The translations under genes were made by a program, and so were the position numbers. Below, piece after piece: positions 3,040 through 63,971 of a stretch of DNA of 64,000 nucleotides (position 1 is its first letter; each line of letters begins with the position of its first letter). Source of the DNA: Eledone cirrhosa. Lineage: Eukaryota. Under the pieces are notes generated by a model, which ran no database searches, had not been told where the DNA came from, and saw nothing but the letters and a program-made list of their open reading frames with translations. Location of the stretch: positions 335,172,001 to 335,236,000 of the forward strand of contig OZ024742.1 in the NCBI GenBank assembly GCA_964016885.1, read 5' to 3'.

Positions 3040-3375
3040 AAAGAGATTTAATGTTTCGGACACTAGTCCTTCATCAGAAGACAGTATGAGAAATAAAAGA
3101 CGGAATAGAAATATAGAGAGTAAGAAGAGAAAGGAGCAGAAAAACTTTTTTTTTTAGTAAAAATTTATAGCATGAGAGAAAAAGTAAAAGAGCATGGGGA
3201 AAAAGAGAGGGGGAGAGAGAGAAAAGGAGGAGTTAGCAAGGTAAAGCTGTAAAAAATAATTCAATAACAGGAATCACATCACCTTGAATGTTATTAGTTT
3301 AATGCTTAAATGAAATGGAAATAAATAACAGATTGTCAGTGACATTTCGGACGTTATTCCTTCATCAGAAAAGAA
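3040..3375 (-). mobile_element. Decayed Penelope-like terminus with two HHR-like cores (3053-3077, ~3343-3367)
   Basis: Minus strand CTGATGA-A-GGAC-TAGT-GTCC-GAAAC and CTGATGA-A-GGA-ATAACG-TCC-GAAA; stems I/III poorly preserved. Confidence 0.5.
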
Positions 3376-3679
3376 AGAATAGAATAATAGAATAGTGAAT
3401 GAGATAAGTTAGGGGATACTGGTATGTGGGGTGAAGAAATGTAATTCCTAAGTGGAAAAGTGACAGTGACGTGGATGTTTCAGCTTGACCACTTCGTCTG
3501 GCCGCAATATGTCTATTACATAATGGGATTCTGCAGTCTCCGTCTACCAAATTTCACTCACAACATATTGGTCAATCACAGTTGGTCGTATTTATATATT
3601 TCTACCTACTTAACATCTGACTGATAAAATGACAAGTCAGTCAATCATATTGGTGGCCTCCCCAGAGCCCCGGCAGACG

Positions 3680-4190
3680 GAATGGAGAAGGCATTTTCCC
3701 GGAGACGCGCTGGAAAAGCCATTCCAGCTCACGAGACTCTCACCTGCGGCTGGCCAGCTCAGCGCCTATGGTGGTGAGTAGGGAGGTAGCTCTAGGGCCG
3801 AGGACATCAGAAGTCTCCACTGCCAAGGGTACAACCGCAAACCTGTCGGAGAGCGACCAGTATTTGAAAAGTTTCGTCTCCTCAGCCCGACGTGCAGCAG
3901 AACCTGGGTTAGTCGCAGACTGCACCAGGTTGCGGCTGGAGAAAGTATCGGTGCAAGTGGCATCCCAGACGAGGGGTTTTCCACCGCAGAACGGGCAGTT
4001 GGTCATGCCATCTGGCCTTTTGCCGTCCCCTTGGTCCAGCCCCACTGGCTCGAGCTGGGAAGGGAAGATTGCAGCGTTCAAGCCATACTGTATAACCTCG
4101 GTGAGGGCCACATGACATGGAAGGCGGCCGGCACTGTGGCGACAGGAAAGCGGGTGGAAGCCGAAAGAGTCCACTGTGGATCCACAGCGA
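3680..4190 (-). pseudogene. CRE-clade non-LTR retrotransposon 3' fragment (restriction-like endonuclease)
   Basis: H-LSC...H, EP-GL-GDGKRPDG, WDAT, AE-K-KY, P-AVET-LG and downstream LFQRVS motifs typical of CRE-type RLE domains. Confidence 0.8.
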
Positions 4191-59199: not shown

Positions 59200-61295
59200 A
59201 TGTTTAAAAGCGTTTCCAAAGAGTTTCAGAAAAATTTGCGAGAAATTTTGGTGAAATTATTTCGAAAATATTTTGATATAACCTTTAAGAAAATTTCGAG
59301 GAAATCTTTTGGGATACGTTTCCAGAAAAGTTTTCGTGAAATTTCTAGGACAAGTTTCGAAAAATTATGAGAGAAATATTTACAAAAGTTTTTTAAAAGA
59401 CGCATGAGATTTTGTGAGCGGTTTTGGTGAAATTATTTCGAAAACATTTTAATAAAACCTTTAAGAAAATTTCGAGGAACACTTTTGATGAAATCTTCAG
59501 TAAAAGTTTTGAAAATTTCTTTCAAAACGTTGCATAAAATTTTGGGAAAGAATTTGGTGAATTCTTTTCGAAAACATTTTGATAAAATTTTACATAAAAT
59601 TTCGAGAAAATTTTGATGAAGTTATTTGGAAAAGTTTCGAAAAATTTTGAGAGAAATGTTTTTAAAAGTTAAAATATCTAAAAACGTTTTTGGTCAACTA
59701 TTTTCGAAAACGATTTTGATAAATCTTTAAATGAAATTTCGGAGAAATGTTTTTAGAAAACTTTTCAGAAAAATTTTGATGAAATTTTTGGGAAAAGTTT
59801 CGAAAGCGTTTGAGAAGAATGTTTTAAAATGTTTCAAAAAAACTGTAGAAAATTTTATGAGAGACTTTGGTGAAATTTTTTCGAAAACGTTTTTTCGAAA
59901 AGCTTTAAGAAAAACTTCCAGGAAAACTTTTGAGAAAACGTTTCCAGACAACGTTTCCAGAAAGATTTTGATGAAATTTCTGGGACAAGTGTCAAAATAT
60001 TTTGATAGAAATATTTACCAAAGTTTTCAAACAGCTGCAGAAAGCTTTGCGGGACATTTTGGTGAAATTATTTCGAAAACATTTTGATATGACCTTAAAG
60101 AAAATTTCAAGGAAAACTTTTGGGATACGTTTCCAGAAAAATGTTGGTGAGATTTCTGGGACAAGTTTCGAAAAATTATGTGAGAAACATTTACAAAAGA
60201 TTTTAAAAGATTCATGAAATTTTGTGAGAAATTTTGGTGAAATTTTTTCGAAAACATTTTCATAAAACTTTAAAAAAGAATTCGTGGCAAATTTTGAGAA
60301 CATTTTTCAGAAAAGTTTTGGTGAAATCGCTGGGAGAAGTTTTAGAAACTTTTGAGAGAATATTTTCAAAAGTTTTTTTTAAAGAAATTGCAGAATATTT
60401 TTCGAGCAATTTTGGTGAAATTGTTTCGAAAACATTTTGATGAAACTTTAAGGAAAATTTTGAAGAAATTTTTGATGAAATCTTCAGTAAAAGTTCTGAA
60501 AAATGTTGAGAGAAATGTTTTTAATTTTTTTCAAAAAGTTGCAGAAAATTTTGAGATAGATTTTGGTGAATTTTTTCGAAAACATTTTGGTAAAATATTA
60601 CATAAAGTTTCGAAGAAAATTTTGATGAAATTATTTGGAAAAGTTTCAAAAACTTTTGAGAGAAATGTTTTTAAAAGTTTTCAAAAAGGTTTCACAAATA
60701 TTTACGAGAAACTTTGGTGGAATTTTTTCGAAAATGATTTTGACAAGATTTTAAAGATAATTTCAAGGAAAATGTTGGTAAAATGTTTAGGAAAAGTTTC
60801 GGAAATCTTTGAGAGAAATGTTTTAAAATTTTTTCCAAAAGTTGCAGAAAATATTGCGACAAATTTTGGGAAATTGTTTCGAAAGCATTTATATAAAACT
60901 TTGAAGAAAATACGAGGAAAATTTACATGAATTTTTTGTAAAAGTTTCGAAAAATTGAGAGAAACGTTTAAAAGAAGTTTTCAGAAAATTGCAGAAAATT
61001 TTGCGAGAAATATTGATGAAATTATTTTGAAAACATTTTGATAAAACTTTAAAAAAAGTTTTGATGAAATTTTTGGAAAAGTTACGAAGATTTTGAGAGA
61101 TATGTTTAAAAGAATTTTCAAATAATTACAGAAAAGTTTGCGAGAAACCTGGGTGAAATGTTTTTGAAAAGAATTTTGATAAAACTTTAAATAAATTTCG
61201 CGGAAAATTTTGGTTAAAACCTTTCCTAAAAGTTTTGTAGAAATTTTTGGGAAAAGAAAATATCAAGGAAAATTTTTGAGGAAACTTTTTACAAA
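59200..61295. repeat. Degenerate A/T-tract satellite, ~130-190-bp units, ~13 copies
   Basis: TTTGGTGAAATT.TTTCGAAAACATTTTGAT-like motif recurs at ~59246, 59422, 59553, 59866, 60057, 60232, 60410, 60562, 60712, 60864, 61012. Confidence 0.88.
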
Positions 61296-62050
61296 ATATA
61301 TATATATATATATATATATATATATATATATATATATATATATATATATATATATATATATATATATATATATATATATATATATATCGTATATATGGTT
61401 GTCTGAAAAGAACGCGAAAGACAGTTAATATATAACTGCCTTACGTCTTTGAAATATGTATAATGAATAAAATAGGGATGTACGAATAAAATCGTCTCTC
61501 TTATATACGTATATATATATATATACATATATATATATATATATATATATATATATTTCTATCTAGCCTGACACGGCACGTCTATCTCGCCTTTCTACAT
61601 CACCGATATTCTTCAAGGAAAAAGTACAGTCCAATACTGCTTGGCAGTAATGACGTTGATTTCCATTTGGGTCGTAGTTTTTGATGACTGCCGAAAGAGA
61701 TTTAATGATTTGGTGACTCTGTACTTGTTGTAGAGTCGGATATATTACTTGTATTGCGTTTAATTCGTACTTTAGTTTCTCGCGAATGCTGGCTAATAAC
61801 CTAATATGGCGAAAATCTAGTAGCAATCAACCCAAATATAATGTAAGGTGTACGTGTGTGCATATGTGTGTCCGCGTTTGTGTGTGCGTGTATGTGTGTG
61901 TGTGTGTGTGTGTCTGCGTGTGTGTATGTAGGTGTGGGAGTGTTGTGTGTGTATATGCGTGTGTATATGCGTGCGTTAGTGATATGCTAAAGTACCGGGG
62001 CTGAACATGACACTACATAATTGAGGAGCGAACTCTTTAACCCCACGGCC

Positions 62051-63971
62051 ATATCTGTATCTATAATATATATACCTACACAGCCACACACGCATATACA
62101 TGTATATGGGGTAATATGTGTAGGTATAATTATAAATATGTGTCAGTGTGAGTGTGTGTGTGTTTGTGTATGTTTGTGTGTGAGTCCTGTGTTCAATCGG
62201 CGGTAAATATAGTTAGTAAGGTACTCAATACATTAGTAGGATGTAAACGGTTTCATTGAAAAGGGAAACCCTGACGATTTATTTTGAATGAAACAGTTCT
62301 AATCCTGTTGAAACCATTTCTCTCTCTCTCTCTCTCTCTCTCTCTCTCTATATATATATATATATATATATATATATATATATATATATATATATATACA
62401 TTTCTTAAAATAACAGATTAAAGTTTAAGCAAAGAATCGCTGCTTTCACCCTTAACGGGATCTTACTTATTTGCATAGGTAAGTATATATTACCCGTATG
62501 TTTTGGGAAGGTACGTATACCTTCCCGTACGTATATTTGATTGTTATGGCGTATAATTTTTATATATTCTGGTACATATGATTTGGCTATGTGTATACGG
62601 GAGTTTTGCGTCTGTGTGAGTATGCAGGTTCGTACGTATGGTGGGTGTGTGTATATGTGTACTTCATGTTTTAGTTGACTTACGCCTCCGAACATTCGTG
62701 TATTTATATGTAGGTATATGTGTGCGCTTGTTATATACGTATTTATTTATTTATATACGTTTCTATAATTATTTATTTATTTGTATACACGCATACACAC
62801 ACACACATATTTATATGTGCGTGCTTTTGTATACCTATGGTAAGTTTTTGCGTATGCTTGTGAATGTACGTATTTGTTTGCGTGTATGTATTTATTTATT
62901 TATATTACTTCTGTATTATATTTATTTACTTTGTTCTTAACTCTGTAGCGGAGATCCATTTGATCTCCTAGTTAGAATTTTTGTCTACGACTTCTGCTAT
63001 ACCATTTACGTGGTTTTGTCTTTGCGTGCTAGTGTTCTCCACGGTCCACATATGACGTATTATCTTCGTTTTTTCGCTAAATGCCAGAGAACGCTTCTAT
63101 GCACCACCTAAGAGAACATTAGTCTACGACCTCTTTAATACCATAAACGTGGTTCTGTCTTTGCGCGTAATTGTTTTTCACCGCTCCTATTAATGACGTA
63201 TTATTCGTTTTTTCCCGTTCTTTGACAGCGAACGTCACCATGAACCAAAGTATCGTCTTCCTGTCTTCCTCCGGTTGCAACGTTTTTTGAAATATCCACT
63301 TCTGCGTTTACAGATTGACTTTGTTAGTTTCAGAAGATCCCGTTAAGGGTGAAAGCAGCGATTCTTTGCTTAAACTTTAATCTGTTATTTTAATAAATAT
63401 TTGCTCTACGGTTCTTATATATTTGATATATATGTATCCTTATCGAGCCCTCTTTGGATTTTAGTCTTCAAATTTATTATTATTACTATATATATATATA
63501 TATATATATATATATATATAACCAAAGATTAATATGGTTCATTGATTACTCAATGAATACAGTTTTACAATAGATTAAAAGCACTCAACAATAAAGTTTT
63601 CCTGGAGATTTTAATATTATTCAAAATATTAACAAATGAAGATATTCACATAATCAAAATATAATCAATATATATTTTCATTATGTGAATATCTTCATTT
63701 GTTAATATTTTGAATAATATATATATATATGTGTGTGAGTGTGTGTGTGTGTGTGTGTGTGTGTGTGTGTGTGTGTGTGTGTGTGTGTGTGTGTGTATAC
63801 ATTTTAGTCTTCAAATATATTATTATTACTATATATATATATATATATATATATATATATATATACAAACATGTATACAAACATTTTATAATCATACCTA
63901 CACATATTACCGCCATATATATGTATATGTGTATGTGGCTGTGTAGGTATATATATTATACATACAGATAT
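62051..63971. repeat. Nested inverted repeats of PLE-like termini (62051-62136/63886-63971; 62405-62464/63334-63393), palindrome 63614-63720, HHR relics ~62271 and ~63331
   Basis: Direct reverse-complement matches; CTGACGA..GAAACAG..CTGTT and CAGAAGA-TCCC-GTTAA-GGGT-GAAA. Confidence 0.75.

Follow-up and report, generated by a model that had tools for sequence, protein, structure and literature searches.

The question raised by this locus, a stretch of 64,000 nucleotides of the Eledone cirrhosa genome (assembly GCA_964016885.1, contig OZ024742.1, positions 335,172,001 to 335,236,000; hereafter the window), is which elements left the many hammerhead ribozyme motifs, intact or decayed, that lie in it. 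They are very probably the 3' ends of many families of Penelope-like elements (PLEs), mostly of the Hydra clade, left in (TA)n tracts as 5'-truncated, often back-to-back and likely inert stubs. Families are named below after a window position in or near their motif, and comparisons with cited papers refer to the parts of these papers that were available.

The initial annotation had listed eight near-complete motifs and eleven damaged ones. All 19 coordinates hold a hammerhead motif or fragment, and relatives in other loci were found for every listed site. Seven of the eight near-complete sites pass a type I descriptor, the exception being 13386-13445, which fails through one stem I mismatch that its relatives do not have. 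As for the damaged sites, the described sequence is present in all eleven, but 63331 and 11030(-) are nearly complete. The motifs are indeed scattered through the window, although 18589/18688, 11030/11150 and 11846/12773 turned out to be arm pairs of single insertions. Their stems had been described as unrelated in sequence yet pairing: stem I does covary across unrelated families, whereas 3053 and 3343 are related, as are 38526, 39742 and 62271; 18289 and 18986 have stem I and stem III in common. The 3343 site has 12 relatives at 35% query cover and none at 55%. Overlooked at first were 19574-19710(-), 41755-41805(-), 40883-40927(-), 61399-61459(+), 62400-62462(-) and a scrambled motif at 38195-38296(+). 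The type I motifs carry CUGANGA, GAAA and UH in C-G-S order, with U3-A8, U4C and U4A variants in some families, and self-cleavage of the window hammerheads is a prediction. There are 29 CUGANGA sites in the window in all; a candidate at 57148(-) was dropped as it has no relatives, and the remaining lone sites were set aside as chance or unrelated repeats. An Rfam scan of the window gave no hammerhead among the best 150 of 453 matches, which are dominated by microsatellite miRNA matches, and the output of a repeat finder was likewise mostly microsatellites.

Motifs this short might be products of chance in AT-rich DNA, the more so as the relaxed type I descriptor, with position 4 freed and U3-A8 permitted, was composed after the candidates were known. 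Run against shuffled controls, as had been proposed, it found 9 motifs in the window vs. means of 0.31 and 0.22 (maxima 2 and 3) in 100 + 100 local dinucleotide shuffles, and none in the reversed window. Since the descriptor was tuned in this way, the count of canonical CUGANGA cores alone is fairer: 5 in the window vs. 0.00-0.03 in shuffles. A version permitting a long stem II gave 9 again, vs. a mean of 0.2 in 40 shuffles, gaining 19574-19710(-) and dropping 38526 on score. In eighty 10-kb stretches of the genome (800 kb), 85 intact motifs were found, 16 of them from two tandem arrays, vs. 0-2 in each of 12 shuffles. At the level of the whole genome (3.0 Gb, microsatellite-rich), a core pattern has 129,400 matches on the forward strand vs. 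17,005 in the reversed control. With these controls and the covariation described below, chance is refuted as an explanation and retains next to no probability.

The sampled density is 106 motifs per Mb (bootstrap 66-154), or about one per 10,000 bases, and since 26% of 64-kb resamples hold at least 9 motifs, the window is ordinary for its genome. The minus-strand count of the core pattern (169,441) includes some sites counted twice, so that the estimate was taken as twice the forward excess, i.e. about 225,000 for the core-pattern subset. The genome total is about 2-3 x 10^5 hammerhead motifs. For comparison, the 126,247 hammerheads of the axolotl (PMC7229834) are the largest count that we met, although not in a survey of all genomes. 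Ribozyme motifs in such numbers suggest a sizeable unannotated repeat signature in genomes of this kind; in the main text of an Octopus repeat annotation, the words 'hammerhead' and 'ribozyme' are absent. The initial annotation also held that much of the spacer DNA bears ribozymes. Counting DNA that matches hammerhead-bearing elements in at least two other loci, the share is 52% (4,983 of 9,540 bases) in 9-21.5 kb and 19% (8,052 of 43,187 non-microsatellite bases) in the window overall, a lower bound because the element library is incomplete. Among the 85 sampled motifs, 41 have a TA or CT tract at most 130 nt downstream, vs. 12% of random points.

Covariation was analysed in matches from 800 kb of evenly spaced stretches, chosen by core and palindromic stem III and blind to stems I and II. 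This set comprises 61 matches in 20 clusters, vs. 0-4 matches in 10 shuffles. Stem I is paired in 78% of cases vs. 44% with partners swapped among the 20 clusters (0 of 5000 shuffles as high), and stem II in 0.70 vs. 0.51 (0 of 5000). Chance-match clusters are evidently present in the set; they merely dilute the signal. Stem III, said to be often palindromic, is so in 59 of the 75 short interiors that the genome sample contains.

What, then, carries the motifs? Both PLE termini and non-autonomous derivatives, as the initial annotation supposed, are present, because the hammerheads of four window families stand at constant distances from PLE open reading frames (ORFs), while the 13027 family consists of non-coding units repeated in tandem. 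In the 19574 family, the hammerhead follows the ORF by about 750 nt in the window and in 3 other loci, and copies of the carrier at 19518-21202(-) end at the same (TA)n junction. In the 63326 family, the hammerhead stands 934-940 nt after another ORF (5 distinct loci), in the 15920 family it comes 1461-1513 nt behind a third (2 loci), and the 39742 motif lies directly 5' of a fourth. At loci L245/L246 a hammerhead stands immediately before the ORF, and hammerhead-ORF-hammerhead units measure 3.26 and 4.2 kb. By alignment, the carriers have a single ORF with reverse transcriptase (RT) and GIY-YIG motifs, as expected of PLEs: among the ORFs spanning the respective region, RWR is present in 3 of 3, DKT in 4 of 5 (EKT in the other), the CxCX5C linker in 6 of 6, and CxxC with CxH around E and N in 4 of 4. 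Homologues of these ORFs include one named GIY-YIG endonuclease by its source and many with PF26215. Further PLE traits are tandem pseudo-long terminal repeats (pseudo-LTRs) with a hammerhead, an inverted truncated copy and a tail at one end, and the (TA)n insertion preference is that of the Hydra clade. On these grounds the carriers appear to be mostly Hydra-clade PLEs; one ORF was first read as belonging to the Neptune clade, a reading dropped after motif comparison.

The Hydra clade of Craig et al. 2021 (PMC8557442) is marked by RWK, DKT, CxCX5C and CxxC/CxH motifs and by insertion into (TA)n, and includes the hammerhead-bearing Hydra-1_Obim of Octopus bimaculoides. The present elements resemble it in their RWK-like and other motifs and in their targets, as well as in the type I hammerhead near the 3' end, the inverted 5'-truncated copy and the one-end tail. 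They differ in size (units of 3.3-4.2 kb vs. mostly <3 kb) and in tail length (about 65-135 vs. 30-40 nt). The Hydra hammerheads listed in that paper are all CUGANGA with a short stem II, whereas U4A, U4C and U3-A8 cores and stem II regions of up to 116 nt (genome sample) occur here. The minimal PLE hammerheads of Cervera and De la Pena 2014 (PMC4209133) are similar in that many families share a genome, mostly as solitary motifs or close opposite-strand pairs, with palindromic stem III, the U3-A8 variant and an extra base after A9. Unlike the 2-3 x 10^5 motifs here, the genomes in that paper have 2,000-9,000 hammerheads each, and changes at U4 are not mentioned in its available part. Craig et al. 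is the only relevant report that we found on cephalopod hammerheads, from partly available literature. The hammerhead-tailed PLE arrangement itself is thus already published; the density, the fixed core variants and a rewired motif described below are new aspects.

The ends of the insertions suggest how they were copied. In the window, what remains of each copy is a 3' end in (TA)n, truncated on its 5' side and often joined back to back with another. Across families the end points lie about 15-200 nt downstream of the motif, with two peaks per family; in the 15920 family, for instance, these are at 35-45 and 135-145 nt past stem I. Of 53 inverted pairs (8 families), 46 combine a short end with a long one, a count into which overlapping loci may have brought a few pairs twice. 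Hairpins, looked for in the tails as 'twin hairpins', are found in most of them, by folding without a control set. Although their tails are unrelated in other respects, the 39742, 62271 and 9690 families have a short motif, GTATTGAGTAC, in common between the two end points.

Several observations, besides the possible double counting, weigh against reading the motifs as PLE 3' ends of this kind. Only 19574 clearly beats shuffles (z -3.0) among 14 window motifs folded alone, and several of these do not take the hammerhead fold; stem III is non-palindromic in the 39742 and 63326 families. Neither of the two pairs of the 40921 family has a short and a long end, and the 18589 family, whose ends are obscured by an AT run in its interior, was left out of the end-point test. 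An ORF link was found for only 4 of about 15 families, and the PLE ORFs gave no significant match in direct Pfam and PDB scans, for which reason the clade placement rests on motifs rather than on a tree.

As a possible course of events, an element protein would nick both (TA)n strands, and reverse transcription would start inside the RNA, at two end points just downstream of the motif. With such a start, the hammerhead would be copied first in nearly every insertion, however early the copying aborts, which would explain the density of the motifs. Since the insertions run past the cut site, the template must have been uncut at that hammerhead or re-ligated, and cutting is therefore likely slow, protein-assisted or dimer-dependent. 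The hammerhead pairs of the window are inverted, which makes same-strand dimers impossible for them. Some lineages would tolerate core changes (U4A, U4C), and non-coding tandem units, namely those of the 13027 family and of the scrambled-motif carrier, probably use this machinery too. A parallel is offered by Poseidon PAc of Anolis (Frangieh et al. 2024, PMC11167929), which in vitro uses two internal RT start sites and inserts without cleavage: uncut RNA is its main template, and its hammerhead cuts only in the presence of protein. The present elements would share with it a tail set by two RT start sites 3' of the hammerhead, extension of both strands and a mainly uncut RNA template; Poseidon, however, belongs to another clade, and its hammerhead overlaps the start codon, whereas it lies about 130-230 nt before it here.

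A different origin has been published for hammerhead repeats of other animals (PMC7229834), namely non-autonomous retrozymes, whose self-cleaved and circularised unit RNAs would be copied by a PLE enzyme, cleavage being efficient and central. In favour of this, the 13027 family is a non-coding 496-nt tandem unit with one hammerhead per unit and a longest open frame of 73 aa, and many copies span the unit junction. Tandem arrays of about 310-nt units with one intact hammerhead each (L169:8596-9717, 5 copies; L207:245-3387, 11 copies), with further such arrays on contig C1 near 1.24 Mb, are also retrozyme-like. The metazoan non-LTR retrozymes described so far (PMC7229834; bioRxiv 10.64898/2026.07.22.740005) are likewise tandem units that do not code for protein and have a single type I hammerhead per unit, even though 496 nt exceeds their 170-400 nt. 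A re-ligated circle would likewise explain intact motifs inside insertions. However, four families have ORFs, most window families being ends of coding PLEs, unlike the published retrozymes, and the 5' ends give little sign of units released by cleavage. In the 13027 family, 0 of 23 scored 5' ends fall at the cut site of the previous unit (local alignments, some copies unscored, no canonical coding family as control). For the U4A family, 30 ORF-start copies out of 774 matches were scored, again without a canonical coding family for comparison: the upstream cut site is read through in 14, while 12 start 102-147 nt past it, 1 at +47 and only 3 within 10 nt. That most families are retrozymes thus seems unlikely, and truncated PLE ends remain the preferred reading. 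Among the 30 ORF-start copies (L328-L357), 12 begin 9-54 nt before the ATG, possibly at a transcription start inside the pseudo-LTR.

Whether cleavage matters to these elements is a separate issue, and why PLEs keep hammerheads is an open question in the literature (PMC8557442, PMC11167929). The fold could be kept mainly for protein binding or for RT positioning, with cleavage dispensable. In line with this, the U4A core is present in 19,868 of the 20,082 copies of the 63326 family, the other 214 being spread over G, C and T; U4C is present in 100 of 100 among the matches listed (637 exact matches, 15920 family); and catalytic mutants were without effect on insertion in vitro (PMC11167929). 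On the other hand, CUGANGA is conserved in 72 of the 85 sampled motifs and a compensated U3-A8 pair in 6, even if the descriptor itself demands most of the core, and a U4C viroid hammerhead reportedly keeps enough activity (PMC3088659). We consider a mainly structural role possible but doubtful. Subfamilies related to the U4C family have C or U at position 4. The U3-A8 variant has been published for PLEs (PMC4209133), while no report of a U4A hammerhead was found in the literature, on which Lunse et al. 2017 may bear, and a stem II above 100 nt in such hammerheads was not found in print. The reason for which hammerheads are retained can be tested directly here, since canonical, U3-A8, U4C and U4A cores all occur in young sister families whose ORFs are nearly intact.

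In the scrambled motif at 38195-38296(+), the cleavage block comes first, the GAAA block second and the CUGA block last (S-G-C), with CUGANGA at 38285(+). A scan for this order found the window copy and 2 others in 800 kb vs. 0-1 in shuffles, and the family pattern has 9,616 genomic matches vs. none in the control. A six-helix structure aligned over 22 copies (2 truncated) has 91.6% paired cells and 11 pairs with two-sided change; 0 of 500 shuffles are as high in covariation and slid controls reach 27-48% pairing, although the structure was drawn from the same sequences that were tested and relatedness inflates the shuffle test. The motif shares with type-SGC hammerheads the S-G-C arrangement of its blocks and the presence of stems I and III, of which stem I covaries and stem III is uninformative because it is invariant. 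Stem II does not form between blocks C and G, however: each half pairs with an upstream strand (helices 1 and 3). The model predicts a cut after 38241. Type-SGC HRIMA-1 (Eckert et al. 2023, PMC10085705) has the same block order with a full core, but it is an RNA from metatranscriptomes rather than a genomic animal repeat, and its stem II halves pair with each other. No report of S-G-C order in animal genomes was found in the partly available literature; if it cuts, this copy adds animal genomes to the places where that hammerhead topology occurs. Its carrier, a unit of 445-630 nt, is non-coding. Spacings of 2.9 kb, considered as the family's own element, were rejected since they correspond to another, nested PLE, and no own ORF was therefore found. 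L383:3735-4870(-) and L384 show a hammerhead of the 3053 family and, immediately after it, a fragment with RT and GIY-YIG from another PLE of Neptune-like appearance, all of it nested within an S-G-C unit.

Taken together, a broader claim can be ventured, about which we are somewhat more doubtful than confident: that this genome, with about a quarter million hammerheads, exceeds all others described in this respect and forms a natural mutational series; that the spread of a 20,000-copy lineage with a crippled U4A core shows cleavage to be dispensable or protein-rescued in PLE mobility; and that a second repeat class has a working, rewired S-G-C hammerhead with a strand-bridged stem II undescribed in animals.

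Table 1. Hammerhead motifs and their carriers in the window
Positions	Strand	Feature	Remarks
3046..3081	-	Decayed minimal type I hammerhead	Relatives with 4-bp stem I, 4-bp stem II, ACGU palindrome
3337..3372	-	Relic of 3053 family, more decayed	Matches at 35% cover only
9611..9816	.	Fold-back stub, hammerhead 3' half twice	Longer relatives: UUGA-AA (U3-A8) or CUGA-AA core
10824..11342	.	Inverted-pair insertion	Minimal hammerhead, nearly complete, 11031-11076(-); other arm truncated at C3 ~11150-11196(+)
11846..11895	-	Damaged arm, U3-A8 family	Stem I weak in relatives too
12773..12826	+	Second arm of 11846 insertion	Damaged stems around an intact U3-A8 core
13027..13107	-	Intact type I hammerhead, 52-nt stem II, palindromic stem III	Retrozyme-like 496-nt non-coding tandem family
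13383..13445	-	Type I hammerhead, one stem I mismatch	Older family, 82-87% identity
15775..16941	.	Fold-back 3' end, young Hydra-type PLE	U4C-core hammerhead 15920-15968(-)
18289..18355	+	Intact type I hammerhead, 8-bp stem I	
18500..18861	.	Single inverted-pair insertion	U3-A8 hammerheads 18589-18626(-), 18688-18725(+)
18986..19046	-	Hammerhead, G12 lost here, intact in relatives	
19518..21202	-	5'-truncated autonomous Hydra-type PLE	ORF part 20448-21200 (CxCX5C linker, GIY-YIG), 3' untranslated region, end in (TA)n
19574..19710	-	Intact hammerhead, 97-nt stem II region	~750 nt past stop codon
37974..38368	+	Non-coding repeat unit between (TA)n tracts, carrier of scrambled hammerhead	
38195..38296	+	S-G-C-order hammerhead, split stem II held by upstream strand	Predicted cut after 38241
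38526..38572	-	Type I hammerhead, 39742 superfamily	
39181..39875	+	Young Hydra-type PLE 3' end, nested short interspersed nuclear element (SINE)	Intact hammerhead 39742-39792
40883..40927	-	Hammerhead, one stem III change, common family	
41755..41805	-	Type I hammerhead, old family (71-84% identity)	
44787..44822	+	Hammerhead ending at C3, whole in relatives	
61399..61459	+	Relic mismatched at C3/A8; relatives distant, two in number	
62265..62315	+	39742-superfamily hammerhead, stem I broken at inversion junction	
62400..63487	.	Inverted-pair 3' end, 20,000-copy Hydra-type PLE	Complete U4A hammerhead 63326-63376(+); truncated arm 62400-62462(-)

Concerning the 9690 family, most copies fold back within stem II and are without the first core half, which about 7 of the 44 shown reach; this suggests that RT stalls or snaps back at the hairpin.

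The remainder of the window holds other repeats. An apparently intact long interspersed nuclear element (LINE) at 26292-31547(-) has two ORFs, a 597-aa ORF1 with a weak zinc-knuckle match and a 1153-aa endonuclease-RT ORF2. A short RT fragment at 8985-9480(+) (Pfam RVT_1) and a cysteine-rich fragment at 3740-4210(-), which has no Pfam match, are probably LINE debris. A very homogeneous 21-nt tandem repeat occupies 36020-37085 (50.8 copies, 95% matches). Finally, a repeat about 200 nt long, probably a SINE, recurs at about 20 window sites, e.g. 17484-17697 and 45115-45307, and accounts, with similar short repeats, for 3,840 window bases.

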